A stretch of DNA of 24,818 nucleotides from Campylobacterota bacterium (GTDB taxonomy: Bacteria > Campylobacterota > Campylobacteria > Campylobacterales > Sulfurovaceae). The stretch is from positions 1 to 24,818 of the forward strand of contig JAYEOM010000011.1 of NCBI GenBank assembly GCA_034722955.1, in the 5' to 3' direction. The notes beneath the pieces are model-generated. The model saw nothing but the letters and a program-made list of their open reading frames with translations, made no database searches and had not been told where the DNA came from. The position numbers were made by a program, and so were the translations under genes. Positions 582 to 15,046 of the stretch are shown here, piece after piece (positions within the stretch are counted from its first letter, which is position 1; every line of letters starts with the position of its first letter).

Positions 582-1262
582 TTACTCTATAAACTGCAAA
601 CTATGTTTCATAGCATTTCTCAAAAAAACGACCATCTTCGCACTCTCATCAAACCCATCCAAATACTCCCTCTTCTCTTCGCTCAATATTAATGGCGGTA
701 TGAAGTCATTTTGTATCGCTTGAAAAGTCATCAAGAGTCTTCCTATCCGTCCATTGCCATCAGCAAAAGGGTGGATAGTCTCAAACGCAATATGAAACTG
801 AGAAATATCCTCGATATTCATACTACTGTTTTTGTATCTATAGAGTAGATTTTCTAAAGTTTGAGATATCTTATTGGGCGGCGTAAGTGTAACCAAACTA
901 CCTTGTATATGTCTCTCATCAGCTCTATATGCTCCTATAGGTTTGGGGACAAAAGAGGGCATCACCTGCAAAGCATCTTCAAACATAATCTCATGCAAGT
1001 CCTTGATAAAAGCCGTATCAAGCCCTCTTGTAGGATTGGCTGATTCGCGTATCACGACATCAAAAGCCTTGGCAAATCCCAAGATAACCAACTGCTCATG
1101 CATAGGTTTTTCTTTGGCTGTTATGCCATACTCCAAGAGCAATTTAGTCTCTCCAAAAGAGAGTGTAGTTCCCTCCATAGCATTAGAGTGATGCGTCACA
1201 GAGAGCCGCAACTCCCGAAACAGTCTCTCTTTTTGTTTTGTTGTTAGGGTGTTAAGTTTCAT
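582..1262 (-). CDS. Fic/DOC family protein (putative AMPylase with intramolecular inhibitory helix)
   Basis: Canonical HPFADGNGRIGR motif and an N-terminal (S/T)xxxE(G/N) motif, SNAMEG. Confidence 0.93.
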   Translation of the reverse strand: MKLNTLTTKQKERLFRELRLSVTHHSNAMEGTTLSFGETKLLLEYGITAKEKPMHEQLVILGFAKAFDVVIRESANPTRGLDTAFIKDLHEIMFEDALQVMPSFVPKPIGAYRADERHIQGSLVTLTPPNKISQTLENLLYRYKNSSMNIEDISQFHIAFETIHPFADGNGRIGRLLMTFQAIQNDFIPPLILSEEKREYLDGFDESAKMVVFLRNAMKHSLQFIE

Positions 1263-1277
1263 TTTTTGGATTTCCTT

Positions 1278-3908
1278 TTATAAAAACATTCCCACATTTT
1301 CACCCTTTAAAACAGAAGTATCTAAGCCATTTTTATAGGTATAAATAATTGAACCATTTTCAAAGCCTCCGTCATAAGCTAAAAACTCTCTATCTAAAAC
1401 CAAATAACCATACTCCTCTTTAGAATACACTCCTAATCTCTCTACTCCACTTCCTTGATATTTTGCCAAAGAGAAAGTATATTTAGAAATTTCTGAAGCT
1501 AGAGTTTGTAGTTTGATATTTTTATTGGTAAAATCTAACTCTTTGTTTTGAACAAGCTCTCCATACTCTTTCCAGACTCTCATAGCCTCATCACACCAAG
1601 GTACAAAAACAGAAACCGATTCCATATCAATAATCTTAATGTGTGATTCACTAAATCTAAGGTTTTTGATATGATCAATATAACTATCTAATCCCTCTAT
1701 AAATGGAGTATCGTTTGATTCTTTAATCTTTGCAATTACTTGGTTATAATAAATATCAAAATCTTTAGTCTCCAGAACATTTTTTTTCTCTTCTTTTCCC
1801 TCTATTGTTTCTATATATTCAGAGGATATTCCAAGTCTCTTATCGCCCTTATAAACAAACTTAGCTTTAGGATTTTCCATCTCAAACAAAAAGAGTTTAT
1901 TTCCTGCTTTTGAAGAGTTGCGATTGATACGCCCTGCGAGTTGTTCATCACTATCTATAAGAGATTTTTCTTTAAATCCAATATCCATATCTATATCCAC
2001 ACCAGCTTCCACCACCTGTGTAGTCACTAGCAAAATATTTTTATCGTTATTCTCTTTTAAAAAATCAATAATCTCTCTTCTTCTTGGCTCTAATATCGTA
2101 CCACTCAAAATAAATATCTCATCAAAAAATATTTTATTTTTAGCTACTGCCTCTTGATAAAACTCATCTGCACCTTTTTTGGTAATGAACTCTATAATAG
2201 TTCTCACGACATTACTTTCATTACTCTCTAATTTTTGGTACGATTTACTCTCTTGCAATAATCTCTTATAAATATCTTTTGAATCTTTTATAGTTTTCTT
2301 TTCGGTAGATATATCAACTCGTCGTCCAAAATTTGGATTTGAAAAATACTCTTGTTTATTTGATACCAAAGGAATAAACTTACTATTTGGCTCATTTAAA
2401 ATATCGCCTATCTTTGGCAAAGTAGCACTCATAACAATAAATTTGATATTAAATTGCTCTGCAAAACTATCAAGTAGATAAACGATACTAGACCACAAAG
2501 AGGGGCTATAAGTCTGTATCTCATCTATTATTACTATAGAGTTAGCCAATCTATGAAAGATATAGTTATCATCTTTACTTACACCCGTGAGGATATTAAA
2601 AAACTTTACATGACTTAGCATCGTAATAGGATAATTCATAAATTGATTATCTAAAAAGTTTGTTTTATCATCTCCATAAATACCATCTTTCTCTATCTCA
2701 TTCTTATCATTATATTTTGCTTTTGAGTGAAGTTGTACTATCTCACTATTATCGAGATCTAAAACATCTTTTATAGCGTCATAGGTTTGTGTGATAAGTG
2801 TCGTAAATGGAAATACATAAAAGATTTTATTGATAGAACTATCCTCTTTTAAAATCTCAACTGCACTCATAAGAGATAAGTTTGTTTTTCCTGCACCTGT
2901 GGGGGCTTCAATATAAAAGAGATTTTTAGTTATATTGTCTTTTAGATTTTCTCTCACTTCCAAAAAGAGTTTATTTCTTAAGATATTGAGATTTTTATTT
3001 GATTTTTCTTCTAAATATTTAAAATCAATCTCTATAGTTTTAATATCCTTTAGAGCTTGATTAAAAGTCTTTTGTTTCTTGTCTTTATCAAATTTATCAA
3101 TATAAAACTCATTATAAACTTTATCATTAAACTCTTTATCTATCAATCCAAAATCTTTATACGCAAGTTCTTTTTGATTGCCATAATTCATAAATTGAGC
3201 TGTGGCGTAGTAGTCCGATATGATGAGGAGGGAGAAGAGGGATTTTGAGAGTAAAAATAGTGTATCTTTGTTCTCCTCAATATAATCATAAATATAAGAA
3301 AAAACCCTATTTTCATCTTTATGCACTTTAATCAAATTTATTTGAATATCAAAGAGATTTAAAAACTGTTCCAAATCATCAGAAAATTCAAATTCTGAAC
3401 TTTGATAAATAGAACCATGATGCTTTGAAATAAAATATCCAAAAAGATAAACCATACTTTCAATAATTTCTATCTCATCTTCATCCCACTTTTTAACATC
3501 AAGTTCTTCTAAAGAGTGATTGATAAAAAGATATGCACCTAATGGCGAATGATTACTACCCTCTGATAATTCAATATTTTTGAACTTCTCATTAGCCATT
3601 TTATCAACTTGAAAATTATCATTCATTTTTCCCATGTCATGCCAATAAACAGCTTTGGCAAATAGATATTTTACAAAATTACCAAACTCTGTTTTTTCTT
3701 TTACATCTTCCAATAAATCGACACTCTGAACAAAAAGTTTATCAAGATGATTTTCTAAGCCATTTTTATCTACTAGAAGTAAAAAATAGTCATAAACTAA
3801 ATCTATATGCTCCTTTAGGCTCTCTTTTTCATTTTCTCTTATATGTGCTTTATATTTATCATCTATATCACGCTTTATATCCAATTCGCTAAATTTTAAA
3901 AGAGACAT
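1278..3908 (-). CDS. cas3: CRISPR-associated HD nuclease/helicase Cas3
   Basis: N-terminal HD domain (HDMGK, HH, SDY), then SF2 helicase motifs APTGAGKT, IIDEIQ, MSAT, TQVVEAGVDID and QLAGRINR. Confidence 0.96.
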   Translation of the reverse strand: MSLLKFSELDIKRDIDDKYKAHIRENEKESLKEHIDLVYDYFLLLVDKNGLENHLDKLFVQSVDLLEDVKEKTEFGNFVKYLFAKAVYWHDMGKMNDNFQVDKMANEKFKNIELSEGSNHSPLGAYLFINHSLEELDVKKWDEDEIEIIESMVYLFGYFISKHHGSIYQSSEFEFSDDLEQFLNLFDIQINLIKVHKDENRVFSYIYDYIEENKDTLFLLSKSLFSLLIISDYYATAQFMNYGNQKELAYKDFGLIDKEFNDKVYNEFYIDKFDKDKKQKTFNQALKDIKTIEIDFKYLEEKSNKNLNILRNKLFLEVRENLKDNITKNLFYIEAPTGAGKTNLSLMSAVEILKEDSSINKIFYVFPFTTLITQTYDAIKDVLDLDNSEIVQLHSKAKYNDKNEIEKDGIYGDDKTNFLDNQFMNYPITMLSHVKFFNILTGVSKDDNYIFHRLANSIVIIDEIQTYSPSLWSSIVYLLDSFAEQFNIKFIVMSATLPKIGDILNEPNSKFIPLVSNKQEYFSNPNFGRRVDISTEKKTIKDSKDIYKRLLQESKSYQKLESNESNVVRTIIEFITKKGADEFYQEAVAKNKIFFDEIFILSGTILEPRRREIIDFLKENNDKNILLVTTQVVEAGVDIDMDIGFKEKSLIDSDEQLAGRINRNSSKAGNKLFLFEMENPKAKFVYKGDKRLGISSEYIETIEGKEEKKNVLETKDFDIYYNQVIAKIKESNDTPFIEGLDSYIDHIKNLRFSESHIKIIDMESVSVFVPWCDEAMRVWKEYGELVQNKELDFTNKNIKLQTLASEISKYTFSLAKYQGSGVERLGVYSKEEYGYLVLDREFLAYDGGFENGSIIYTYKNGLDTSVLKGENVGMFL

Positions 3909-4633
3909 ATCACACCCTCATCAGTCTCATAAAGATTTTGAAGTTCTTTAGTAGATTTAAACATATTATTAGTATATAAAAAGTCATAATATTTATACTG
4001 TTTTAACTTCTCATCAAAACCAATAGGTAATCTCTCAAATAGATAAAAATAGTTGGTAGTCCTCTCTTTGTATCCACTATTTTTAAGTACAAAATTTTCA
4101 TCTTTTTTTATTATCGTTTTTACTTCAAATTTCTCTTTTGATTCTATTTTTTCAAATTTAGTATGTTGATGGAAATTATCCCACCACAAAGAAAATTCAT
4201 TTTTGCCCATATATGGAGGATAAACAGCTCTATGATTTTTCAAATAATCAATCAACTTTTGATGTTCTTCATTCTCATCATCAAGTTCAAGATAAATTCT
4301 ATAAGCAGGATTGACAAGTGTCTGCTCTGTAATATTGGATATTGAACCATTTGTCGTATTGTTAAAAATGATAAACTCTTTTTTAAATATACCACCATTT
4401 TCACTACTTGGAGCAATGGCTAGTCTAATATCTTTAAGTTTATCATAATACTCTGGCATTTTAGACTTGTCTCTATTTTGATTATGTCCATCATACCCCA
4501 TAATGGCACCAAATATTCCTAAGAGATAAGGCTTATGAATGATATTGTATGATACAAAAATCTTATCATTAATATCAGGCTTTTTAAACATTCCAAACTC
4601 TGACTTAATTGTAAAACTAATTAGTTTTTTCAT
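3896..4633 (-). CDS. cas5: Type I-B Cas5
   Basis: FGMFKKPD...SY..IHKPYLLGIFGAIMG N-terminal motif and YMGKNEF; lies between cas7 and cas3. Confidence 0.92.
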   Translation of the reverse strand: MKKLISFTIKSEFGMFKKPDINDKIFVSYNIIHKPYLLGIFGAIMGYDGHNQNRDKSKMPEYYDKLKDIRLAIAPSSENGGIFKKEFIIFNNTTNGSISNITEQTLVNPAYRIYLELDDENEEHQKLIDYLKNHRAVYPPYMGKNEFSLWWDNFHQHTKFEKIESKEKFEVKTIIKKDENFVLKNSGYKERTTNYFYLFERLPIGFDEKLKQYKYYDFLYTNNMFKSTKELQNLYETDEGVICLF

Positions 4634-4634
4634 A

Positions 4635-5591
4635 TTAGTTCACTTCTACAACTTTTAATAAATCATAAATTTTTACTTTATCTTTTAGTGTATCACTATC
4701 ATTTATAACATTTAAAAGTTCTTCAATATAATAAAGTTCTATAGAATCAATTTCACTTTCATATTTAGTCAAATAAGTTATAAGATTTGTAATATCAAAA
4801 GAGTTATTACCCTCTTTATCTTTTTCAAACTTAATAAACTGTGTAAAACTAGGAAGTGTCAAAGTAGAAGTTTCATTGAGCGTTACATAGATAGAGAGTT
4901 CATTTTCAACTCCAGCTTTTGAATGAGAATCATAAAAAGTAGCAGAGTTATTAAAAGCATTTTTTAAGATAGATATATCATTATTTGATAGAGTTTTTAT
5001 ATCACTCACTGTATTTTTCCAACTTGATAAATTTTGAGGATTTACTGAAAAGTTATGAATATAATGGGCTTCTGTAGCTTTACTCATACTTCCTATCGCT
5101 GTAAATGGTGCTAAGATTTCATCTGTATAGACTCGTCCTTTTTTATATAAATCAGTTGCATGATTAATTTGTACATTTCCATGAATAGAGATATTATTTC
5201 CTTTTGCTCCATCAGGTGTAAAAGTTGCACCAAAAAGTCTTACATCAATAGCCTCTGTTAAATTTTTAAAAACACTCTCTTTATCACTTTTTTTAACATT
5301 TGAATTATCTTTTAATTTGGTATCAAAAAGTACCTCGTAACTTGTTTTCAAATCATCTGTTTCTATCTTATTGTGAAAGTGCTTAGTAAATAATACTTTT
5401 TCATCACTATAATTCTTTTTAATATAGTTTCTTACCAACCACTTAAAAGATTTATCAGTTGCATAAAAACTACCATCACTTTTAAGTCTTCTAGGAAGTC
5501 CAGAAAAATCTGCATTATAATTTGCATTAATTGCCTTAACTACCACACACCCATAAACTCTATTTTTAAATTCACTACTACTCATTTTCAT
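4635..5591 (-). CDS. cas7: Type I-B Cas7 (Csh2-like); true start is probably the ATG at 5585
   Basis: NRVYG...NANYNADFSG.P, ATDKSFKW.VR and DVRLFGATF motifs. The AGGAG RBS is better spaced to the second ATG. Confidence 0.92.
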   Translation of the reverse strand: MKMSSSEFKNRVYGCVVVKAINANYNADFSGLPRRLKSDGSFYATDKSFKWLVRNYIKKNYSDEKVLFTKHFHNKIETDDLKTSYEVLFDTKLKDNSNVKKSDKESVFKNLTEAIDVRLFGATFTPDGAKGNNISIHGNVQINHATDLYKKGRVYTDEILAPFTAIGSMSKATEAHYIHNFSVNPQNLSSWKNTVSDIKTLSNNDISILKNAFNNSATFYDSHSKAGVENELSIYVTLNETSTLTLPSFTQFIKFEKDKEGNNSFDITNLITYLTKYESEIDSIELYYIEELLNVINDSDTLKDKVKIYDLLKVVEVN

Positions 5592-6051
5592 TTTCTCCTA
5601 TGTTATTATTTTGATATTTAATTTGGTTGTCAGAAAAATATCCTGCGATCATATACTCTATTACATTGTCCATCTCTAAATTATCTTTATAGGTCATCAT
5701 CATACTCATAGCATTATCATATCTCCTATCAAATTTCAATTCATGAGCATATTTTTTATGAGTTTCCCACATATACTCTTTAAGTAATTTACTTGTTTGC
5801 CACTCTGTAAACCCTGAAAAGTCGGCATGTGATTTATTCTCATTTTTACCTTTTTTCTTGCTTATTAAGAATCTTGCTAATTGACCACATAAAAAAGCAT
5901 AGAGTTTATCATCATCTAAAATCATTTCAAGACCTCCGACAAACTCCTTTTTTAGTGTTTTTCCATCAGATTTAAATTCTAAACTATCTTGCCAACACCC
6001 CAAAGAATTTCCCATTTTCTTTTTAAGTTCTATAAATTCACCACTATCCAC
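5578..6051 (-). CDS. cas11: Putative internally translated Cas11b (157 aa) within cas8b copy 2
   Basis: In-frame GTG at 6051 preceded by AAAAGGAGGAGACAAAA (strong SD) just before the C-terminal helical domain. Internal Cas11 translation is known for I-B/I-C/I-D. Confidence 0.65.
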   Translation of the reverse strand: MDSGEFIELKKKMGNSLGCWQDSLEFKSDGKTLKKEFVGGLEMILDDDKLYAFLCGQLARFLISKKKGKNENKSHADFSGFTEWQTSKLLKEYMWETHKKYAHELKFDRRYDNAMSMMMTYKDNLEMDNVIEYMIAGYFSDNQIKYQNNNIGENENE

Positions 6052-7524
6052 TTTTGTCTCCTCCTTTTGATTTAAACTAAATAGTAAATTTAGCTTCTCT
6101 TTTATCTCATTTTCATAAATAGAATACCCATCTTTGTTGTTATTATCATGCCTGATATTATCAATAATAATATCAAGTAACATCTCTCTAAAATCTATCA
6201 ATCTTAAAGCACTTTGATGTGATTTATAGATAAAGTCATAAAAATTTTGTCGATACTTAAGAAGATAATTTTTAAGAATGTTGTTTGAATTACCCGAGTC
6301 TATTTTCCAATAGGTTATTTTTAGATCCTTATAGTCACTAAAATAGTTATATTGTAGTTTTTTATCAAAAATAAGCTCATTAATAATTTTTTCAAATTGA
6401 AAGACACTTAGTTTTTTATCATAAAAACCACCTAAATTAAAACTATTTTTTATTTGTAAAAAGTTTTCTATCTTTAGAGTTGTCATATATTCAAAATTTT
6501 CGATATAATCTAAATCTGTAATCTGTAATTTCCAACCATTATCACTTTTTGAATAATAATTTAAAAGATAAAAGTTTTTTAAATCTTTAGGATTTGTATA
6601 ATAGATAGATTTAATTATCTCTCTATAACTCTTCTTCTTCTCATTATCTTTTAAAATACTTTTTTGTTCTCCAAAAAGATTTTTATTATCAATAAATAGA
6701 GGAAAAGGTTTTGTAAGTTGTTGATTATCAGTCATAACCTTAAATTTATGAAGCTTTAAAGTACAAGTTTTACAAACATGATTAGTGAGTTTTAAAGGCA
6801 TAGTACCTTTCATACCTAAATCATCTCCTAATGTAGATAAGACATAAGGTAGAGAAAGCTCATCTGAATATTCTTCACAAAGAGAACAGTTTCCTTTATG
6901 AAACCCTGCTTTTTTTGTATCTAAAAATGCTCTTTTTTCTACAAATTTTTCATAAAAAGACTTCACAATATTTAAGCCTACATCAATATAAACCCGTATC
7001 TCTATAGAAACTTCTTTTTTGTTCTTTTTTTGATTTTCATATTTTTGTTTTAATTCAGTGACAATACTTTTTTTCCCAAGCAATAGTTTTTCAAGATTTT
7101 CTTCAAGATATTTTTGAATTTCTATTAATTTATTTTTATCTTCATCATCATCTAAATAAATACTAGCACTTTCATACTGAACTTTAATTCTGTTTGCTTT
7201 AGCATTTAGATTTGTGTTAACTGTTTCATTCTCATCTAATTTATTATAAAAAACTTTTACTGTCAAAATATATGGAGAGCTTCCTCCTAAACCTTTATTT
7301 TTATCAAGATATTTATTGTGCATACCTTTTTGATAGTAAGTCATATATTTGAGAATCTCTTTTAATTCACTATCTAAATTATCAATATCCAGTAAATCTT
7401 TGCAAACCATATCATTTTGAATTTTAATAAAGTAATGAAGATAGGCTTTACTTACTTCATTTTGAATAAAATAATCCTCTATCTTTGGATTTGCATCCAT
7501 AAACTCCACAATCTCTTTAATCAT
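5578..7524 (-). CDS. cas8b: Type I-B Cas8b large subunit (copy 2, adjacent to cas7), with Zn-finger cysteines
   Basis: Directly upstream of cas7; CSLC...CKTC; C-terminal helical domain with FLCGQLARFLIS and NAMSMMMTY motifs shared with copy 1. Confidence 0.82.
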   Translation of the reverse strand: MIKEIVEFMDANPKIEDYFIQNEVSKAYLHYFIKIQNDMVCKDLLDIDNLDSELKEILKYMTYYQKGMHNKYLDKNKGLGGSSPYILTVKVFYNKLDENETVNTNLNAKANRIKVQYESASIYLDDDEDKNKLIEIQKYLEENLEKLLLGKKSIVTELKQKYENQKKNKKEVSIEIRVYIDVGLNIVKSFYEKFVEKRAFLDTKKAGFHKGNCSLCEEYSDELSLPYVLSTLGDDLGMKGTMPLKLTNHVCKTCTLKLHKFKVMTDNQQLTKPFPLFIDNKNLFGEQKSILKDNEKKKSYREIIKSIYYTNPKDLKNFYLLNYYSKSDNGWKLQITDLDYIENFEYMTTLKIENFLQIKNSFNLGGFYDKKLSVFQFEKIINELIFDKKLQYNYFSDYKDLKITYWKIDSGNSNNILKNYLLKYRQNFYDFIYKSHQSALRLIDFREMLLDIIIDNIRHDNNNKDGYSIYENEIKEKLNLLFSLNQKEETKVDSGEFIELKKKMGNSLGCWQDSLEFKSDGKTLKKEFVGGLEMILDDDKLYAFLCGQLARFLISKKKGKNENKSHADFSGFTEWQTSKLLKEYMWETHKKYAHELKFDRRYDNAMSMMMTYKDNLEMDNVIEYMIAGYFSDNQIKYQNNNIGENENE

Positions 7525-7577
7525 TTTACTAATCCTTTATTTTTTACTAAAATTGCCAAATAAACAAAAAACTGCAT
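7521..7577 (-). CDS. Putative 18-aa leader peptide MQFFVYLAILVKNKGLVK coupled to cas8b copy 2
   Basis: GAGGAG SD 5 nt before the ATG at 7577; its TGA overlaps the cas8b ATG (ATGA). Confidence 0.4.
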   Translation of the reverse strand: MQFFVYLAILVKNKGLVK

Positions 7578-7726
7578 ATAATCTCCTCATATAATTTCTT
7601 CTAAGAGTAAGCCATCTTTTTTCAAAAGTTTTTCAACTTTAAAGCAAAGAGATACTACTCTGTTAGAATTGAAGTACTAACTTCAAATCTTTCCTAAAAC
7701 GATTATGACACACTAAACCTTATAAG

Positions 7727-7744
7727 TCACTAGTATAAGAAAGT
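7727..7744. promoter_or_regulatory. TCA PAM plus crRNA-like-RNA target overlapping a candidate minus-strand -10 box (TATACT, 7737-7732) of the cas8b2 operon
   Basis: + strand reads TCA|CTAGTATAAGAAAGT, 14/15 identical to the sequence following the repeat at 7872. The reverse complement contains TATACT. Confidence 0.65.
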
Positions 7745-7803
7745 AAATAAAAATAGAGAAATTTTAGAAAAAAATAGAAATACTAATCAAATATTTTGTT
7801 TTT

Positions 7804-7814
7804 TATACTAAAAT
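7804..7814 (+). promoter_or_regulatory. Candidate -10 box (TATACT/TAAAAT) for the crRNA-like RNA
   Basis: TATACT at 7804-7809 and TAAAAT at 7809-7814, after an A/T-tract upstream region and just before the 5' arm of the predicted RNA. Confidence 0.4.
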
Positions 7815-7816
7815 CA

Positions 7817-7909
7817 CGATTAGCAACAATATCTTTATCTTTTTGAACCGATACATAAGGTGTATTTAAATCTAGTATAAGATAGTTTTAGAATTGTTGC
7901 TACTTTTTT
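7817..7909 (+). ncRNA. Candidate crRNA-like regulatory RNA (CreR/CreA-like): solitary repeat + pseudo-spacer + U-tract; ends approximate
   Basis: Repeat at 7842-7871, spacer from 7872, flanking 10-bp inverted repeat (TAGCAACAAT 7821-7830 / ATTGTTGCTA 7893-7902) and T6 at 7904-7909. Confidence 0.65.
7842..7871 (+). CRISPR. Solitary type I-B-like CRISPR repeat TTTGAACCGATACATAAGGTGTATTTAAAT
   Basis: 30 nt with an ATACA-TAAGG-TGTAT hairpin and an 8-nt 3' handle ATTTAAAT. Resembles, from recollection, the I-B repeat family of the form NTTGAAC...ACAT...TGTATTTAAAT. Single copy, not an array. Confidence 0.75.
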
Positions 7910-7917
7910 ACCTACTC

Positions 7918-8718
7918 CTACCTACCAATACAACATTTCTTATACTTCTTACCACTGCCACAAGGACAAGGGTCATTTCTGCCCACTTTTGAAAAAGGTT
8001 CTATATTGTCTTGAAATACATTAAGCTTAGTTTTCTCTTTTCGTAAACCTAAATGTATTTCTATACTTTCTATATCTCCACACATTAGCTCATCTACATC
8101 TTTAGTTTTATAAGTTTTACGAATCAAATCAATATGTCTATCTTTTCCGAGGGTAACAAGAGATGTGATAGCAAAAGAGAGAGCGACAGGATGGGTCTTT
8201 TCATTTTCTAGATAACGAATCATCATAGCTTCTATACGATTAGAACTATTTGGCTCTGTTTCTAACATATACTCTATACCATCAAAGATACCTATAAGTC
8301 CATATAATTCTGGATTTTCAAATATATATTTCTCAAAATAATCCAATCCATCTATACCCATATTTGTGACATATTGGACAAAAGCTTCAAGAAAATATTC
8401 ATTTCCATCATTCTCTTTCTCTTTCTATTTCTTCTCTAAAATAATATCAATAGACTCCACAGCTTTTATTTTACCTAGAACATTGACAGCATGTATCGTA
8501 GCAAAAAAGAATTTTTCTATTAATTTATCATCATCTATCAAGTTATATGCTTCATATGTAGCCAATTCAATAAGCTCATCTGTATCATCTTTTGTAAATT
8601 TGAATTTTTCATAAATCTTTAAATTAACTTTTCCTCGCAAAGACTCTTTGCCCAACTCAAACAGTGCTTGTATCTTTGTTGAATACTTTTTTGTAAAATC
8701 TCCGTATACTCTGTTCAT
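7918..8718 (-). pseudogene. Helical (DUF1186-like) + SEC-C motif protein interrupted by one in-frame TAG at 8425-8427
   Basis: ORFs 8425-8718 and 7918-8361 are in the same frame, reading ...[31 protein letters not shown]...; C-terminus [20 protein letters not shown]. The DUF1186 label is tentative. Confidence 0.75.
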
Positions 8719-9398
8719 TTTGTTTCTCCTTTTGATTTTAGTTTTTTGGTTAAGAAATAGACTATCATTTGAGAAAACTCATAATATTTACCATTATCAT
8801 CTATCTCTTCATACTTGCTAACATCCTGCTTGATGGTCTGATTTGTCCAGCCTCGTTTATTTAGATTTTGAATTAACCTTTGATAAGATTGCTTTCGGTT
8901 TCTTTTCAACATTGAATTATTGAGATTTAAAATAGTGTTTAACTCTTTATCTATTCTAGAATCCACAGAAGAGATGTCTCCTAATTTAGAATATTTTATA
9001 TATTGCTCTATAGCACCTAAAAGATTGATACTATTTAATTCATCTTCTCCTTTAAAGCTATCACAATACTGCTCTTTTTTTCGTTTGCCCTCGCCTCCAT
9101 TACAAGCAATAAAAAGATTTTGGTAATCTATTTGCACATCTCTATTTTTTGTTTGTGGTTTAAAATGTTCTATTTTACTACTATTGCAATCTATGCGACT
9201 CATACAATAACAACAGATATAACCTTGCTCTTCTAAAAGCTGTTTTCTTAGATTATATTTTTCATCTTCGCTACAACCTTCTTTTGTTTTATCTTTAAAA
9301 TCTTCATAAATATTACTTTTTCTCAAATCACTATGAGTAATAGAGCTTCTATACTCTGTAAGACTTTTGGGTTCTGTTCCTTTATTTATCTGTTTCAA
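8715..9398 (-). CDS. HNH endonuclease, TIGR02646 / Septu-retron PtuB-like
   Basis: LLEEQGYICCYCMSRI, IEHFKPQ, DYQNLFIAC...CDSFKG and LNLN..L...R motifs; directly downstream of an ABC ATPase. Confidence 0.85.
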   Translation of the reverse strand: MKQINKGTEPKSLTEYRSSITHSDLRKSNIYEDFKDKTKEGCSEDEKYNLRKQLLEEQGYICCYCMSRIDCNSSKIEHFKPQTKNRDVQIDYQNLFIACNGGEGKRKKEQYCDSFKGEDELNSINLLGAIEQYIKYSKLGDISSVDSRIDKELNTILNLNNSMLKRNRKQSYQRLIQNLNKRGWTNQTIKQDVSKYEEIDDNGKYYEFSQMIVYFLTKKLKSKGETK

Positions 9399-9401
9399 GT
9401 A

Positions 9402-10328
9402 TTAATCCCTCCAAAAAGCTATATCATTTCTCATTGCCAAAACTTCACTATCATTTTCACCTATAACCTTTTCAAGAGTATCAATACATATTTCAGCTTC
9501 ATCATATTTGTCATCATTCAAAAGCTCTTGACACTCTTTAATTTTTTTGGAGACACTCTCTTCTCTTGTATATTGTATTCCCATAACTTCTTCAAGAACC
9601 CACTCTATATCACGACCATAAGCCAATACATCATTTATAACCTCGACCTCGTCATTTTCATTCATAGCAAGAAGTCTAATCCACTCATTTTTTGCACTCC
9701 CAATAATATGAGGCGAATGAGTAGCTATAATGATTTGACAATTATTCTCTTTGGCAAAAGTTTCATAGAGTTTCAGTATTTTATTTTGCCATGATGGATG
9801 CAGAGATAGCTCTGGCTCATCTATAAGAACAATTTGGTTTCTAATATCTTTAAAATAGAGGTACAACACTTTAGAGAGAAGAGTTTTCTCTCCTGTAGAT
9901 ATATCATCTATAGAGAGCTTGTCACCTCTTTTATTTCTAAAAAATAAATTTCCCTCTCCATCTCTACTATCAAATACTATTTTCATATCAAAACCATCTA
10001 ATATACTATTGATATAATTACGAACTCTTTTGTATATTTTACTCGCAACTATATCCTCTTCATAAACCATTTTTTCTATATATTTGGGCATAAATTCTTT
10101 GATGTCGTTCAAACTATATTGTGCAGGGAAGTAGATAGAATTATGGGCAATTTCACTCTTTATAAACTCTAAAATAGTTGTTTTTCCTGTACCATTGACT
10201 CCTGCTATGATAATAAGCGGTAGAGGATTGCTATTTTTATCAGAAAATGAGATTTTAAAATCTTGAAACAATTTATACTCTACGATATGTAAGTCTTGTA
10301 ATTTTTCTCCTCTATCTACATCAAACAT
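9402..10328 (-). CDS. ABC/AAA ATPase, Septu/retron PtuA-like
   Basis: Walker A GVNGTGKT, signature ISTGEK, Walker B VLIDEPELSLHPSWQ, H-loop ATHSPH and C-terminal YGRD..WVLEEVMG. No adjacent permease; paired with the HNH gene. Confidence 0.85.
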   Translation of the reverse strand: MFDVDRGEKLQDLHIVEYKLFQDFKISFSDKNSNPLPLIIIAGVNGTGKTTILEFIKSEIAHNSIYFPAQYSLNDIKEFMPKYIEKMVYEEDIVASKIYKRVRNYINSILDGFDMKIVFDSRDGEGNLFFRNKRGDKLSIDDISTGEKTLLSKVLYLYFKDIRNQIVLIDEPELSLHPSWQNKILKLYETFAKENNCQIIIATHSPHIIGSAKNEWIRLLAMNENDEVEVINDVLAYGRDIEWVLEEVMGIQYTREESVSKKIKECQELLNDDKYDEAEICIDTLEKVIGENDSEVLAMRNDIAFWRD

Positions 10329-10713
10329 TATCTACTTCCCTCTTCATATAAAAGATATTCTCACTCAAAGCCCCCACCAAAAAACTATCCATATTTTTAG
10401 ATAGAGATAGTTTATCACTCTCATCATACGCCATAATCAAACTCATAGCATTGTTGAACTTCACATATCCCAAGCTAATGGCGTGTTTATATTTGAAGTA
10501 TTCACTCTCTATGACTCTCTTTAGCTTAGTTGAACTGTTGGCTCTCAAATAAGACTCTAGCAAATCACCATTTTTTTGATGAGCTTTGCTCTGCGATATG
10601 AGATATTTTGCCATCTGACCAGAGATATAAAAAAACTCTTCTGCTGTTAGATTATCATAATTTGCATCCTCTATTCTCTCTATCATACTCTCTTGCATCT
10701 TTTTTATATTCAT
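10321..10713 (-). CDS. cas11: Putative internally translated Cas11b (130 aa) within cas8b copy 1
   Basis: In-frame ATG at 10713 (MNIKKMQ...) preceded by AAAAGGGAGAAGAGACT. Confidence 0.6.
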   Translation of the reverse strand: MNIKKMQESMIERIEDANYDNLTAEEFFYISGQMAKYLISQSKAHQKNGDLLESYLRANSSTKLKRVIESEYFKYKHAISLGYVKFNNAMSLIMAYDESDKLSLSKNMDSFLVGALSENIFYMKREVDNV

Positions 10714-11988
10714 AGTCTCTTCTCCCTTTTTGCGTAATGAAAATTTTAGATTTAAGCTCAGTCCAGCTGAAAGAAATCTCCCTCTAATGATATGTTCTAT
10801 AGCCAAATGTGTTGCATACTTCTCTATGACTTTATAAAATGCTCTATCATCATACTTTTTGAAATACCCACTCATCGCATCGCGTGTAGTGTAGATAAAT
10901 GAAGCGAAATTATTGTCAAGTTTTTTATACACTTCTCCATAATAGTTATTTTTGAGTTGTCTATTATAGAGTACCTCATCTATTTTATCCTCTAAAATAT
11001 TGAGATATTCTATAGTCTCATCTTCTATCAGCACTTTACCCTTTTTGAGTAGCAGATGGTTTTTTATAGTGATAGGCTCTTTTAATTTATCTATTTTAAT
11101 AGGCAAATAATCAAAATCTATAACCAAATCTTTTTCTCTAAAGTCCCTATTGATAAAAAACTCACTACCTAGGGGTGTTTTGTCCATATATTTTTGAGTC
11201 TTTAGCCAATCAAAAAACTTTTTTTCCATAAGAACATCTTCTTTGAGTATCAGAAATGGTGTAGATGTTTTTCTTGTTAAATTCTTACAAAATGGTTTTT
11301 TATCATTTAGCACTATATTTGAATCAGGTAAACCATAAATAAGATTTTCTATGTATTTTGAATAAATATTTTTATTAAAAAGTTTAAGTGAAAAATAGAT
11401 AGCACTTTCTTCTTTATATCTATCCAATGGCACATCAAAAAATATTTTAATATAATTGGTAATTTCATTATCTTTTGCAAGATTCATAATTGTTTCCATA
11501 TTATTTTTTAAAAATTTATATTTTTTAGCAACATCACGCTTTCTATCACAAGTATTTAATTTCTTATACTCTTTTACAATTTTTATTTCATGTTTATCTT
11601 TGAAAGAAAAATTCAATAATTTATTATATAGATTTTTTTTAATATGTTCTAAATTCTCTAAATTAAATTGCTCGACTTTCATATATAAAGATAAATAATT
11701 ATTATTATGAATAATCTTTTTGGGTGCATCAAGAACTTTTCTATTGCTTATCACATCACTATAATAGTCCCTCTCCTTAAACCACTCATAGGCTTTACTA
11801 TTTAATCCACCGTTGATATCACTAAAAATTAGTTCTCTATTTTTGCGTTTGACTATAAAAGCTTGGGAGGTCTTATCACTATTGACTTTGATATACATCC
11901 CCTCTTTTAGCTCATAAGAACCCAAAATTAGCATATCACCTCTCTGTTCATACTCTCTTTTGAATACTTCTAATAAATCATAAATCAT
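10321..11988 (-). CDS. cas8b: Type I-B Cas8b/Csh1-like large subunit (copy 1, adjacent to cas6)
   Basis: Csh1-like N-terminus (MIYDLLEVFK...ILGSYEL.EG.YI, RDYYS, KKIIHNNNYLS, LNDKKPF) and C-terminal SGQMAKYLISQSK and NNAMSLIMAY; ATGA overlap with cas6. Confidence 0.82.
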   Translation of the reverse strand: MIYDLLEVFKREYEQRGDMLILGSYELKEGMYIKVNSDKTSQAFIVKRKNRELIFSDINGGLNSKAYEWFKERDYYSDVISNRKVLDAPKKIIHNNNYLSLYMKVEQFNLENLEHIKKNLYNKLLNFSFKDKHEIKIVKEYKKLNTCDRKRDVAKKYKFLKNNMETIMNLAKDNEITNYIKIFFDVPLDRYKEESAIYFSLKLFNKNIYSKYIENLIYGLPDSNIVLNDKKPFCKNLTRKTSTPFLILKEDVLMEKKFFDWLKTQKYMDKTPLGSEFFINRDFREKDLVIDFDYLPIKIDKLKEPITIKNHLLLKKGKVLIEDETIEYLNILEDKIDEVLYNRQLKNNYYGEVYKKLDNNFASFIYTTRDAMSGYFKKYDDRAFYKVIEKYATHLAIEHIIRGRFLSAGLSLNLKFSLRKKGEETMNIKKMQESMIERIEDANYDNLTAEEFFYISGQMAKYLISQSKAHQKNGDLLESYLRANSSTKLKRVIESEYFKYKHAISLGYVKFNNAMSLIMAYDESDKLSLSKNMDSFLVGALSENIFYMKREVDNV

Positions 11989-12707
11989 CTCATCCCCCTA
12001 CCCAAACAAAACCCACCACCAAAGCTATTCTTCTCTCCAAGCCCACAAGCTAGGGCTACAAAAGCCAACTTTTGGCTCACTTCATCTTCGTTGGGAACTA
12101 TCTTGAACTTATTGCCATAAAACTTGACAGGTTTGCCATCACTATGTGTTTTGTTGGTTTGTATAGTCTGTAGGCGGTTGTTTTTGAGTTCAAATAGTTG
12201 GATGAAGTTTTGTATGCTTTTGATTGGTTCATTGTAAAACTCTTGGTATTTTTTCTCTAGGTTGTCTTGAAGTTGTTTATGTAGGAGCATCAAGTCATCT
12301 TCTTTGACCCAGTATCTGTCTTTGGCTACGGTGACGATGACAGGGGTGGCAGAGTAGAGTTCTGAGATGAAAAATTGGTTGATAGTTTTTTTGTGTGTCT
12401 CTACTATGAGTAGGTGGGGGTTGTCTATGTTGGCTCTTAGCGTAGTGGAGAGTCTATCTATGAAGCTCTTCTCTAGTGAGCGGATGACAAACTTATAGGT
12501 GTTGCCTTTGAGATATATCTTGTCGCGTTCTATGGGAAGTAGTCCACCAAACAGATAGTGTTTAAATCCTGTAGTACTATGAAGTTTTTTCAGCTCCTCG
12601 TCTTGAGCCATAGAGTAGCTGATATAGCGTGATAGTATGTCAAAGCTTTGCGTGAAGCTAATATCCTCTTTTATGTATGCTGTGCATGTCAGTTCAAAAT
12701 ATTTCAA
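11985..12707 (-). CDS. cas6: CRISPR-associated endoribonuclease Cas6
   Basis: C-terminal G-rich loop GLGEKNSFGGGF; H...FKHYLF motif; TTG start with AAGGAG RBS. Confidence 0.95.
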   Translation of the reverse strand: MKYFELTCTAYIKEDISFTQSFDILSRYISYSMAQDEELKKLHSTTGFKHYLFGGLLPIERDKIYLKGNTYKFVIRSLEKSFIDRLSTTLRANIDNPHLLIVETHKKTINQFFISELYSATPVIVTVAKDRYWVKEDDLMLLHKQLQDNLEKKYQEFYNEPIKSIQNFIQLFELKNNRLQTIQTNKTHSDGKPVKFYGNKFKIVPNEDEVSQKLAFVALACGLGEKNSFGGGFCLGRGMR

Positions 12708-12736
12708 AATATCTCCTTATTGAAAATAATATTTTG

Positions 12737-12745
12737 ATTATAGCA
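12737..12745 (-). promoter_or_regulatory. Extended -10 promoter (TGCTATAAT) of the cas6 operon
   Basis: Perfect TGnTATAAT about 30 nt upstream of the cas6 start. Confidence 0.7.
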
Positions 12746-12805
12746 CAACCCAGAGGGATAGGTGTGATATTGTGCCATCTTGGAGTATCCTGATTTGGAA
12801 CCTTC

Positions 12806-15046
12806 TTAGAAACGCTCCTCCATCTCTACATTGATCTCTCTCATTTTTGCTCCTTGATCTAGGCATCGTATCTGATGTTTGCCAGGGGGTAGGTAGCGGT
12901 ATAGCGGTATCCCTGATTTGCCCTCAAGTGGAGGGTCATTGTCTATCAGCCACAGGATAGTGGTATTTGTCTCAAAGGCGTAGCATTGTAGTTTTGTCTT
13001 TTTGAACTCTTGGGGCAAGAGTCTGTTTTGGATCTGTTTCTGCCCATCGACAGGACTGGTGATGAGGGGATCATATGCTCTCCACATGGGATAGCAGGTA
13101 TGGGATGATAGCTCCTCCATAGAGCTGATACGCCTACGGTCAAAGAGTGTCGCTAGAACCTCTGCACGCAGTAGATGACATGGCAGTGTCGCATCGACCC
13201 CATCGATAACTTCATCATATATATACTCTCTGCAAGCTCCTATCTCTATGGTATCTTGACATATTTTTTTACTCTTGATACCTTGAGGCTTGACAAACCA
13301 CTCCTTGGGCTTAAGCAGCCCAAAGATATCCAACAGTGTCGGAGAAGCTGCGGCTAGCCCTGTAAGTCTCCTCTCTTTTTTGCCACTACTAGTCAAGCTC
13401 TTTCCCATAGAGCCATCAAAGTTACCATACCACACTGCGACCGTATATTCAGGAGTATACCCAATACTCAGCATATCTCTAGCATTGGCAGATGTCCCTG
13501 TCTTGAACGCCACTCTCGAACTACTCCCCATATACTCCCATGAGCTTGTAAACGATTGTCTCGGAGCATCGACAAGGATTTGACTGATGAGATAGGAGGA
13601 CTCCTCTGTGAGGATCTTCTGACCTATGGGCGGACTATGGGGCAAAAACGAGCTATTTCGGTAGAGACCTTTGTTTGCAAAAGAGGCAAACAGTTCTGCC
13701 AAATTTTTGAGCGTGATGCCACACCCGCCCAGTGTCAATGAACTACCATAATAATCTTTTGGATGGTTGATAGAGGAGATATTTGCCTGCTTGAGCAGAC
13801 TATAGAGAGAGGCATCACCTAGAAGTCTATCTAGCTCAACAGCAGGGATATTGAGAGAGAGTTGCAGTGCCTCTTTGGCTGTCACTTCACCTAGAAACTG
13901 TTCACTGTAGTTGAGCGGTTTGTAGCCTTCGATACTCAGAGGGATATCATATAGTTTTCTCAGCGGAGTGATAAGTCCCTGCTCCAGTGCTTTGGCATAG
14001 ATGAAAGGCTTGAGTGTCGAACCGGGACTCACTAGTGCTTTGAGACCATCCACCTCTCCTCCATATCTCTTGTCTCTAAAATCTTGAGAGCCTACATAAG
14101 CCAATATTGTCATATCTCTATTGTCGATGACAATTGCGGCAGCATTGTAGATATGCAGCTGATTTAGTATCTCTATCTTATCTTTTAGAAGATATTCTAT
14201 CTGCTGCTGTAGGGAGAGATCTATCGTAGTGACAACCTTGCCTCCGCCTCTAAATTTGGCACTAAGTTGCGGAGCGAAATATACCAAATCCGCTCTATGA
14301 GGAGATAGACTCTCCTGCATAGCCCTACTATACCTCTCTTGTGATAAACCATCATCATCATAGAGTCTAGTGAGCACCTTCTCTTTGAGACGGTTTATAC
14401 GAGAGAAGTTTTTTGACTCTTTTTTGGGCAGGTTTAGATTTGGATTTTGAGGGATAGCTATGAGGTAGGCTATCTGAGCAAGCGAAAGAGACTCTACAGG
14501 CGTGTCGAAGTAGGCAAAAGCAGCCGATGAGAAACCCTCTATATTTCCCCCGTATGGTGTATTGTTGAGGTACATTTCCAAAATCTCATCTTTGGAGTAG
14601 TGATACTCCAGCTGTAGAGAGATAAACATCTCTATAAGTTTATTGCCTACTGTTCTAGGCTTGCGATGCATCATCCTAGCTACCTGCATCGTCAGTGTTG
14701 AAGCCCCTATGGTGCGTCGGTTTCGGAGATTGAACCATGCGGCTCTAGCCAGAGAGATGGGGTTGATACCAAAATGGTGATAAAAATAGTGATCTTCATA
14801 TGCCAAGAGTGTTTGCCTGATATCTTCTGTGATCTCAGATGACTCTATGGGTATCCGCAAAAATCCATCTTCGCTCAAGTGCAGACGCAGCAGTTGATGG
14901 TGCCGATCATAGATCAGGGTTGACTGGGGTTTATAGAGTCGTTTTCGATCCAGAGGATAGAGTCTATCCAGCAGCAAAAACAGAAAGATAGAGAGGAGTA
15001 TAGATAGAGATAAAACTTTGATAGTTTTTCCTACTTTTACCACCAT
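12806..15046 (-). CDS. pbpC: Penicillin-binding protein 1C
   Basis: N-terminal TM; transglycosylase motifs EDHYFYHHFG and GASTLTMQVAR; transpeptidase STLK, SLN and KTGT; PBP1C C-terminal domain (PGKHQI). Confidence 0.92.
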   Translation of the reverse strand: MVVKVGKTIKVLSLSILLSIFLFLLLDRLYPLDRKRLYKPQSTLIYDRHHQLLRLHLSEDGFLRIPIESSEITEDIRQTLLAYEDHYFYHHFGINPISLARAAWFNLRNRRTIGASTLTMQVARMMHRKPRTVGNKLIEMFISLQLEYHYSKDEILEMYLNNTPYGGNIEGFSSAAFAYFDTPVESLSLAQIAYLIAIPQNPNLNLPKKESKNFSRINRLKEKVLTRLYDDDGLSQERYSRAMQESLSPHRADLVYFAPQLSAKFRGGGKVVTTIDLSLQQQIEYLLKDKIEILNQLHIYNAAAIVIDNRDMTILAYVGSQDFRDKRYGGEVDGLKALVSPGSTLKPFIYAKALEQGLITPLRKLYDIPLSIEGYKPLNYSEQFLGEVTAKEALQLSLNIPAVELDRLLGDASLYSLLKQANISSINHPKDYYGSSLTLGGCGITLKNLAELFASFANKGLYRNSSFLPHSPPIGQKILTEESSYLISQILVDAPRQSFTSSWEYMGSSSRVAFKTGTSANARDMLSIGYTPEYTVAVWYGNFDGSMGKSLTSSGKKERRLTGLAAASPTLLDIFGLLKPKEWFVKPQGIKSKKICQDTIEIGACREYIYDEVIDGVDATLPCHLLRAEVLATLFDRRRISSMEELSSHTCYPMWRAYDPLITSPVDGQKQIQNRLLPQEFKKTKLQCYAFETNTTILWLIDNDPPLEGKSGIPLYRYLPPGKHQIRCLDQGAKMREINVEMEERF

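Follow-up and report, generated by a model that had tools for sequence, protein, structure and literature searches.

The locus described here raises the question of why a pair of Septu nuclease genes lies inside a type I-B CRISPR-cas operon, and whether the pair depends on the Cascade large subunit encoded directly upstream of it. The window, by which we mean the whole stretch of DNA that was analysed, is a complete contig of 24,818 bp (JAYEOM010000011.1, C11 in our numbering) from a Campylobacterota genome of the family Sulfurovaceae (GCA_034722955.1; 2.51 Mb, 140 contigs, 40% GC). On its minus strand, the genes follow one another in the order cas6b, cas8b_1, ptuA, ptuB, a SEC-C gene, a 393-nt spacer, cas8b_2, cas7, cas5, cas3, fic and cas4. 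A first-pass annotation of this DNA had offered two readings of the ATPase and HNH pair: a layered defence, in which Cas8b1/Cas11 or Cascade takes the place of a retron as the guard of the nuclease, and a simpler alternative, in which an independent defence cassette was inserted at a cas-locus hotspot. Our results gave no direct support for a guard. The simpler alternative fits best, on account of the turnover of the cassette, the other cargo at the same operon junctions and the many stand-alone homologues. We consider it probable that ptuAB is an independently acting, co-transcribed Septu cassette, which uses the cas8b|cas7 junction as a recurrent cargo slot in one of two lineages of I-B operons, referred to below as lineage A.

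The identity of the two genes was determined by profile searches. PtuA (308 aa; 9402-10328, minus strand, as for all genes of the window) was called by PADLOC with an E-value of 5.6e-73 and matched Pfam AAA_15 at 1.3e-25. PtuB, the HNH nuclease (227 aa; 8715-9398), was called by PADLOC at 1.9e-61 and passed TIGR02646 with 69.1 bits (cut-off, 52.15). The window PtuA represents a short form of the Septu ABC/AAA_15 ATPase, its 308 aa matching the 404-position PADLOC profile in two stretches. In alignment A2, the PtuA residues G43, N45, G46, G48 and K49 of Walker A and D170/E171 of Walker B, as well as H204, are invariant, and the CxxC...EH...N motif columns of PtuB line up with those of 18 other PtuB sequences. 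At the level of sequence, then, PtuAB is a clear Septu pair as that system is defined. The PADLOC profiles of retron type also matched (ATPase_I-A, 6.3e-44; HNH_I-A, 1.9e-35). PtuA, however, scored 140.1 bits with NF041760, as compared to the cut-off of 500 for the retron-Ec78 equivalog, and PtuB scored 87.7 bits with NF041761, as compared to 150 for the Ec78-type equivalog. A search with PF00078 (RVT_1) gave no reverse transcriptase (RT) match on the window contig, in agreement with the first-pass annotation, and placed the five matches of the genome on contigs C60, C109, C112 and C47; a retron non-coding RNA was not searched for.

The pair is tightly packed into the operon. The cas6b gene (240 aa; 11985-12707; PADLOC Cas6b, 1.9e-72; Pfam Cas_Cas6_C; TIGR01877, 73.6 bits) overlaps cas8b_1 (555 aa; 10321-11988; PADLOC Cas8b, 3.3e-108 over residues 1-552) by 4 nt, cas8b_1 overlaps ptuA by 8 nt, ptuA and ptuB are 3 nt apart, and ptuB overlaps the following 97-aa open reading frame (ORF) by 4 nt. 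The first-pass annotation had given exactly these four values, and the PADLOC, Pfam and NCBIfam matches together with the ORF coordinates bore out its gene identities and its tight operon structure. The ATG of ptuA sits within ...AATGTTTGA, in the overlap with cas8b_1. Upstream of cas6, 30 nt before its TTG start, an extended -10-like motif, TGCTATAAT (12737-12745, minus strand), resembles the promoter consensus and may serve as the promoter. A scan for promoters and terminators across 7300-13000 yielded 34 sites, as compared to 29.8 ± 5.5 in shuffled sequences, and thus no excess. From the overlaps, one messenger would extend from the cas6 promoter through cas6, cas8b_1, ptuA and ptuB, with ptuA translationally coupled to cas8b_1.

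Is the placement of ptuAB behind cas8b peculiar to the window? Related loci (designated with the prefix L) were sought in one bacterial order, the Campylobacterales, among contigs resembling the window Cas8b. ORF calling in these loci chose the longest frames that do not overlap, with a minimum of 50-70 aa, and labels were assigned by BLASTP against our own reference set, a procedure that small or very divergent genes may escape. Searching genome contigs with PtuA identified five loci, from Campylobacteraceae, Sulfurospirillum, Sulfurovum, Sulfurimonas and Arcobacter, and ptuA was located directly 3' of a cas8b_1 homologue in all five, L019 showing the last 20 residues of cas8b. In the four loci that extend beyond ptuA, ptuB and then cas7 follow; L020 stops inside ptuA. 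A metagenome search with a Cas8b alignment, in which many loci come from few sample series and hence are not independent, retained 80 of 305 loci, 22 of them without a visible next gene. In the 58 informative ones, cas8b was followed by ptuA (17), cas7 (32) or other cargo (9). With loci of at least 95% identical Cas8b dropped, the corresponding counts were 18, 34 and 11 (n = 63). The recurrence of the neighbourhood, which the first-pass annotation had proposed as a check, was thus confirmed in 22 distinct loci, counting the window and taking duplicates once, plus one split locus. The distance from cas8b to ptuA ranges from -14 to +5 nt, and that from ptuB to cas7 from -11 to +14 nt. Cargo-free lineage-A loci run from cas8b directly into cas7, so that the ATPase gene does stand at the usual place of cas7, as had been suggested.

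An even sample of 401 Campylobacterales genomes was used to view the same association from both sides. Apart from the genome of the window, 30 genomes contained a cas8b_1 homologue, and ptuA lay directly downstream in 4 of these. In a fifth genome (G337), cas6-cas8b and ptuA-ptuB are found on two contig ends. PtuA matches with E<1e-40 outside the window genome occurred at 16 places, of which 4 are directly downstream of a cas8b_1 homologue, one is the split case of G337, and 11 are outside cas loci. The association of ptuAB with cas8b exceeds chance.

The cassette nevertheless turns over on cas backbones that are nearly the same. L029 contains ptuAB at the place where L090 has a 175-nt filler, and the two loci share 95.6% identity in Cas8b and 93-95% in the flanks; their cargo differs at the cas6|cas8b and cas3|cas4 junctions as well. 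Similarly, L128 carries a ptuAB insert of 2105 bp between flanks that are 98.2% and 92.3% identical to those of L049, in which cas8b and cas7 are 4 nt apart. Among L029, L089 and L091, Cas8b is 95-96% identical whereas PtuA is only 35-48% identical, and a comparison of PtuA from L029 and L091 reveals a mosaic, with a C-terminus that is 100% identical and an N-terminus that is 20-45% identical. PtuB has decayed in two loci: L068 is without a ptuB ORF, and L080 retains only an 86-aa PtuB fragment. We also observed that cargo differs between backbones of 93-98% identity and that insertions are exact to the gene boundaries (L029/L090, L128/L049, L131, L051, L030 and L045). Long-form PtuAs of approximately 460-510 aa (L018, L019, L021, L029, L030 and L037) possess an additional domain at the N-terminus, about 150 aa long, which begins MTYWHMQLHPND. 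This domain is found in cas-embedded and stand-alone pairs alike, is the most variable part of the mosaic PtuA variants and is missing from the window PtuA.

Other cargo was found at each junction of the lineage-A operon. Between cas6 and cas8b, we observed PD-T4-5-like proteins (226-228 aa) and PDC-S02; between cas8b and cas7, besides ptuAB, a HEPN-like protein with MNT, an MBL-fold protein and small unassigned ORFs; between cas7 and cas5, Fic and PDC-S02; between cas5 and cas3, ParE beside an ORF of 73 aa (a putative antitoxin), SIR2-STAND, NERD+SEC-C and RT UG13a; and between cas3 and cas4, PDC-S01, with Fic at this junction in the window. Because the cargo is varied at all of these junctions, they are general cargo slots. 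The fic gene of the window (582-1262; 226 aa; Pfam Fic, 1.6e-17; PADLOC PDC-S04, 7.9e-40) encodes a protein 61-63% identical to the Fic proteins between cas7 and cas5 in L021 (12626-13312) and L042 (4707-5393), and fic occupies the same position in L085 and L112 (7956-8639). In L023, a Fic protein of another PDC-S04 subfamily, matching the window Fic over 36 residues only, is encoded directly upstream of a stand-alone ptuAB.

PtuAB pairs outside cas loci have neighbours of a different kind, namely TypA/BipA, GlmS, IleRS, RuvB, the AccI restriction-modification system, or Fic with PDC-M38. The first-pass annotation had stated that coupling would be refuted if close homologues occurred mostly without cas genes and acted independently of Cas8b1 or Cascade, and the first part of this is what the 11 of 16 close PtuA homologues outside cas loci show. 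Stand-alone PtuAs are 34-60% identical to the window PtuA, whose nearest full-length relative in a tree of 21 sequences is stand-alone (L022, 60% identity). In this tree, cas-embedded and stand-alone sequences interleave, well-supported branches force at least 5 changes between the two states, and the cas label is unclustered (313 of 500 shuffles gave a count as low). In L022, L027 and L038, stand-alone ptuA is preceded by ORFs of some 600 aa, which were considered as hidden Cas8 proteins and rejected, being TypA/BipA, GlmS and a molybdopterin oxidoreductase. A 408-aa ORF of L024 was likewise rejected as a Cas8 remnant, its match being weak (81 residues, 30% identity) and without a family match. 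L024 and L034, from the same family as the window genome, have a stand-alone ptuAB in which PtuA is extended at the N-terminus by a TPR-like region, and the pair adjoins a homologue, 53% identical, of the window PBP1C gene; in the window, a PBP1C-type gene and housekeeping genes lie 5' of cas6. In this family, the surroundings of pbpC may be a hotspot for defence genes.

What, then, is the extra Cas8 beside which the window pair is found? The proteins encoded by cas8b_1 and cas8b_2 (648 aa; 5578-7524; PADLOC Cas8b, 9.3e-34, C-terminal half only) are 26% identical across only 95 C-terminal residues, and they belong to two lineages of I-B systems. cas8b_1 is 45-73% identical to the Cas8b of lineage A. 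Cas7 proteins from loci with cas8b_1-type genes are 60-97% identical among themselves, as compared to 28-34% with the window Cas7. Homologues of cas8b_2 with 81-82% identity were found in two other families of the order (G063/G031), and the canonical operon of this lineage B is cas6-cas8b_2-cas7-cas5-cas3-(cargo)-cas4-cas1-cas2-array. Window positions 1465-7524 share 79% DNA identity with L052, a canonical lineage-B locus, and the window cas7 (4635-5591; PADLOC Cas7b), cas5 (3896-4633; PADLOC Cas5) and cas3 (1278-3908; PADLOC Cas3b, 8.2e-222) are 72-81% identical to those of L052 and L053. The two lineages have in common cas6 (58-66% identity, cas6b of the window being this close to both), cas4 (70-79%) and one repeat family. 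These results show that the window is a chimera, in which cas6-cas8b_1-ptuAB of lineage A is joined to a complete cas8b_2-cas7-cas5-cas3 module of lineage B. Since the locus is chimeric, the 'extra Cas8' is an orphaned lineage-A large subunit, without its own cas7, cas5 and cas3. No other locus that we inspected carries both types of Cas8b.

The type I-B gene set is present. The window encodes cas6b, cas8b, cas7, cas5, cas3 and, at the contig end, cas4 (74-571; 165 aa; Pfam Cas_Cas4, 2.9e-49), and contig C71 of the same genome carries the C-terminal half of cas1, cas2 and the start of an array with two repeats. The GC content is about 0.40-0.42 in cas6 and cas4 and 0.26-0.32 in the genes between them. 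This step was rejected as a sign of recent transfer, because the relatives, too, have a higher GC content in cas6 and cas4 than in cas8 and cas3. Other CRISPR systems of the genome include an array at the end of C43, with a different 30-nt repeat for which no match was found in the window, a 750-aa RT-Cas1-like frame beside an array with a 37-nt repeat on C109, and a third cas1 on C106.

Contigs from public sequencing runs revealed a variant of the locus. A contig from X2, another sample in the same study, runs from position 7524 straight to 12001, omitting 4476 bases; it has 0 differences from the window over the 369 bases of its cas8b_2 part and 21 over the 122 bases of its cas6 part. A similar joint, between 7522 and 11984, is present in a run from another study (X5), where its shorter arm measures only 30 bases. 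These joints indicate that the block of cas8b_1, ptuAB, the SEC-C gene and the spacer is a presence/absence polymorphism, its alternative being the canonical cas6-cas8b_2 junction. Another X2 contig covers 8173-10473 (the SEC-C gene, ptuB, ptuA and the end of cas8b_1) with 3 differences. Among the matches listed, which are the longest pieces (313 others exist), no contig bridges 7525-7605, so that the junction of the spacer with cas8b_2 is not independently confirmed.

The orphaned cas8b_1 has changed quickly. Since its split from its sister in L056, it has accumulated 76-95 unique changes as compared to 19-31 in the sister (five outgroups; p 2.5e-6 to 4e-12), a 3- to 5-fold faster rate of evolution. 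This excess fits relaxed constraint or a changed role, and the extra Cas8b is best read as a fast-evolving leftover of lineage A. PtuA showed no such excess relative to L022 (31-40 vs 25-36 unique changes); there was an excess relative to L059, which is possibly closer to the outgroups. Met426 of cas8b_1 (codon 10711-10713) is nearly invariant in alignment A1, and its codon is preceded by GGGAGA, making it a possible internal start of a Cas11-like product, which would be 130 aa long.

Downstream of ptuB, the first-pass annotation had described a SEC-C gene overlapping it by 4 nt. The overlap was exact, and the gene proved to be a single frame split by a stop codon. The 97-aa ORF (8425-8718) and a 147-aa ORF (7918-8361) share one frame, with a single TAG at 8425-8427 between them, and the read-through product (267 residues, with the stop written as X) aligns over 96-97% of its length to SEC-C/DUF1186-like proteins of 270-290 aa, the best of which is 63% identical. 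We conclude from the shared frame and the full-length alignment that 7918-8718 is one SEC-C/DUF1186-like gene ('YecA family'; SEC-C motif, 7.6e-11) with a nonsense codon. Among the matches listed for X1 and X2, including the long X2 contig, no difference from the window was seen at the TAG codon. A relative in X5 is without the TAG through a 6-nt deletion, and a single nucleotide, at 8426, is missing from one X3 contig. The 147-aa ORF that follows ptuB in L032 was rejected as a SEC-C homologue, because it is unrelated to the SEC-C gene of the window.

The spacer of 393 nt that separates the SEC-C gene from cas8b_2 (7525-7917) contains a CRISPR-repeat-like element. On the plus strand, which is antisense to the cas genes, 26 of the 30 bases at 7842-7871 are identical to the system's own repeat, which lies downstream of cas2 on C71. 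The first 11 nt of the spacer-like stretch that follows it (7872-7907) recur at 7730-7740 after TCA, a recurrence seen in 40 of 20000 shuffles, and this partial target abuts a promoter-like site with TG (minus strand, 7730-7702) that faces cas8b_2. L041 has the same design, with a seed match of 14 nt that also comes after AGTCA. Further standalone antisense repeats were observed in four loci. Three of these (L042, L043 and L134) gave no seed match, and in L101 the spacer runs off the contig, so that a match is seen in 2 of the 5 elements whose spacer is visible; the window element is without a second repeat. According to the accessible text of Shmakov et al. 2023 (PMC10120712), the spacers of standalone repeats have partial complementarity to promoters, which belong to cas genes ('in particular cas8') or to cargo inside CRISPR-cas loci such as toxin-antitoxins. 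The window element resembles such regulators and is a candidate for a cr-like regulatory RNA of the CreR/CreA type that would target a cas8 promoter, its RNA, protospacer adjacent motif and promoter being putative. Because it is located downstream of ptuAB, it cannot be the guard of ptuAB. Between this target and cas8b_2, at 7525-7600 on the minus strand, two small overlapping frames follow a GAGGAG motif. One encodes a hydrophobic peptide of 18 aa and has a stop overlapping the cas8b_2 ATG, and the other begins ATG AGG AGA. They could be candidates for a leader or coupling ORF or for a small toxin-like element.

How an independent cassette might work in this position can be outlined. The data show what the genes are, that the arrangement recurs, that the cassette keeps to its slot and turns over there, and that the window is chimeric; co-transcription with cas6 and cas8b_1, nuclease activity and independence from Cascade are the parts of this outline that we infer. 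A PtuA oligomer would hold PtuB and release the nuclease on infection, as in ordinary Septu, if the literature on that system applies here. Cascade-Cas3 would be made from the lineage-B genes, possibly via an internal self-regulated promoter. An adaptive layer and an innate, possibly abortive, one would then be expressed and transferred together, and contact between Cas8b and PtuAB would not be needed. The conserved cas8b and cas7 flanks might serve as homology arms for cassette swaps between strains, which would explain the fidelity to one slot without protein contact.

Several observations weigh against independent action and speak instead for the possibility that Cas8b_1, its Cas11 or Cascade restrains or recruits PtuAB, which would be set off once Cascade has been disabled, as by an anti-CRISPR, or would constitute a second Cascade-linked nuclease. 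Unlike Fic and PDC-S02, which occupy several slots, bona fide ptuAB in the lineage-A operons examined always comes immediately behind cas8b, and the frames overlap or abut in 22 loci. In the well-supported Cas8b clade that contains the window, ptuA is present in 12 of 12 members, although the PtuA variants differ; across the whole Cas8b tree, 6 changes account for the ptuA label, which is clustered (none of 500 shuffles gave as low a count). Both results speak against pure randomness. Identities of Cas8b and PtuA are correlated (Mantel r 0.44; 0 of 5000 permutations). In the window, the cas8b_1 frame is open over its full length, has lost none of the 58 invariant columns of the family and has been retained together with an intact ptuAB beside another complete effector module. 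The conserved, possible internal start for a Cas11-like product points the same way, as does the precedent of the Cascade-guarded toxins CreTA and CrePA described in the available portion of a review (PMC12737573). In spite of these points, we regard such coupling as unlikely. ptuAB is present or absent on backbones that are 95-98% identical, and PtuA variants of 35-48% identity have been exchanged on a single backbone, which speaks against an interface that has co-evolved. Relatives of the window PtuA, with identities of up to 60%, stand alone beside housekeeping genes, unrelated cargo uses the same slot, and known Cascade guarding employs a repeat-like RNA and a toxin promoter, neither of which ptuAB has. 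It is distinctly unlikely, in our estimate, that Cas8b/Cas11 and PtuAB form a functional unit, whether as a Cascade-linked second effector or as an anti-CRISPR-triggered backup, with the orphan cas8b_1 kept because PtuAB needs it.

The opposite extreme is that cas8b_1, ptuAB and the SEC-C gene became redundant passengers when the lineage-B module arrived and now decay without a current function. The nonsense codon of the SEC-C gene, the 3- to 5-fold faster evolution of Cas8b_1, the absence of the block from a co-occurring variant and the erosion of PtuAB in L068 and L080 are all consistent with this scenario. It appears quite improbable to us, however, as cas8b_1, ptuA and ptuB remain full-length frames with their catalytic or invariant columns intact and PtuA shows no rate excess relative to L022. 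That the contig misjoins the I-B loci of two strains, so that the two-Cas8b arrangement exists in no cell, is very improbable. A genome of 140 contigs from a metagenome-type source, a variant cas6-to-cas8b_2 junction in the same habitat, the failure of any listed match to bridge 7525-7605 and the low X1 depth there (2.13) speak for a misjoin. Against it, the spacer 7525-7917 is foreign to the canonical variant, so that a join into cas8b_2 needs reads carrying both, the bin 7403-7669 has some depth in all four runs, and the X2 contig continues through 8173-10473 with only 3 differences. Least probable of all is an addiction module, in which PtuAB would stabilise the cas operon against loss in the manner of CreTA. 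Toxin-antitoxin-type cargo (ParE with its 73-aa putative antitoxin, HEPN-MNT) does occur in the same operons, but ptuAB is readily lost from operons that are otherwise intact, and we know of no antitoxin logic for Septu. An independent, co-transcribed Septu cassette thus accounts best for the behaviour of ptuAB in these operons.

The data show the junctions of a cas operon acting as cargo hotspots, at which cassettes are gained, swapped and lost at exact gene boundaries in a Cas backbone that stays 95-98% identical, and the question arises of how such precise swaps come about. The loci also provide a natural test set for distinguishing hitch-hiking from cooperation with Cascade, as the same backbone is found with ptuAB, with another variant of it and without it, and an orphan Cas8b stands beside PtuAB in the window. 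If a functional unit were to prove true, Septu would be a Cascade-linked second effector or an anti-CRISPR-triggered backup. Defence and toxin cargo inside CRISPR-cas loci is already known in general. In the parts of the literature returned by a full-text search, with supplements outside its reach, no report was found that places Septu or PtuAB at one constant junction within type I-B effector operons.

The window pair can be compared with several known systems. Like stand-alone Septu, it comprises the same two families, adjacent and co-oriented, with conserved Walker A/B and HNH columns. Unlike stand-alone Septu, it is without its own promoter region and sits tightly packed behind cas8b and before the gene that comes next in the cas operon, and its PtuA is of the short form. 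For PtuAB in general, a preprint describes, in its accessible text, a 6:2 PtuA:PtuB complex with ATP-regulated DNA cleavage that is stand-alone or retron-linked (bioRxiv 10.1101/2024.10.26.620412), and cleavage of tRNA-Tyr by Septu is stated in the available text of another report (PMC13096335). Type I-A retrons (Retron-Eco7/Ec78) share the PtuA and PtuB effector pair, which a partner module restrains in those systems, as far as the accessible portions of three reports go (PMC12819146, PMC12673091, PMC12640716). The window contig, in contrast, is without an RT, and its scores lie far under the Ec78 equivalog cut-offs.

The Cascade-repressed toxins CreTA and CrePA (PMC12737573), in which the toxin gene has its own promoter targeted by an adjacent repeat-like RNA with a partially matching spacer, differ from ptuAB in their regulation. 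ptuA overlaps cas8b_1 by 8 nt and hence has no promoter region of its own, and the sole repeat-like sequence of the window targets 7730-7740, downstream of ptuAB. The window element at 7842-7907, with its target at 7730, would fit the description of repeat-like regulators in CRISPR-cas loci, as given in the text available from PMC10120712, and it faces cas8b_2. Finally, HNH-Cascade systems, which include Cas8-HNH in type I-F and Cas5-HNH in type I-E, resemble the window in having an HNH nuclease in a type I effector operon, as indicated by the accessible parts of the reports (PMC11480323, PMC11459484, bioRxiv 10.1101/2024.07.22.604555). According to the same partial texts, type I-F HNH variants use HNH in place of Cas3 (PMC11480323), and I-F1 HNH-Cascade is without Cas3 (PMC11459484). 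In those systems the HNH domain is fused to a Cascade subunit, whereas the PtuB of the window is a separate protein of 227 aa that comes with its own ATPase in an operon in which cas3 is present.

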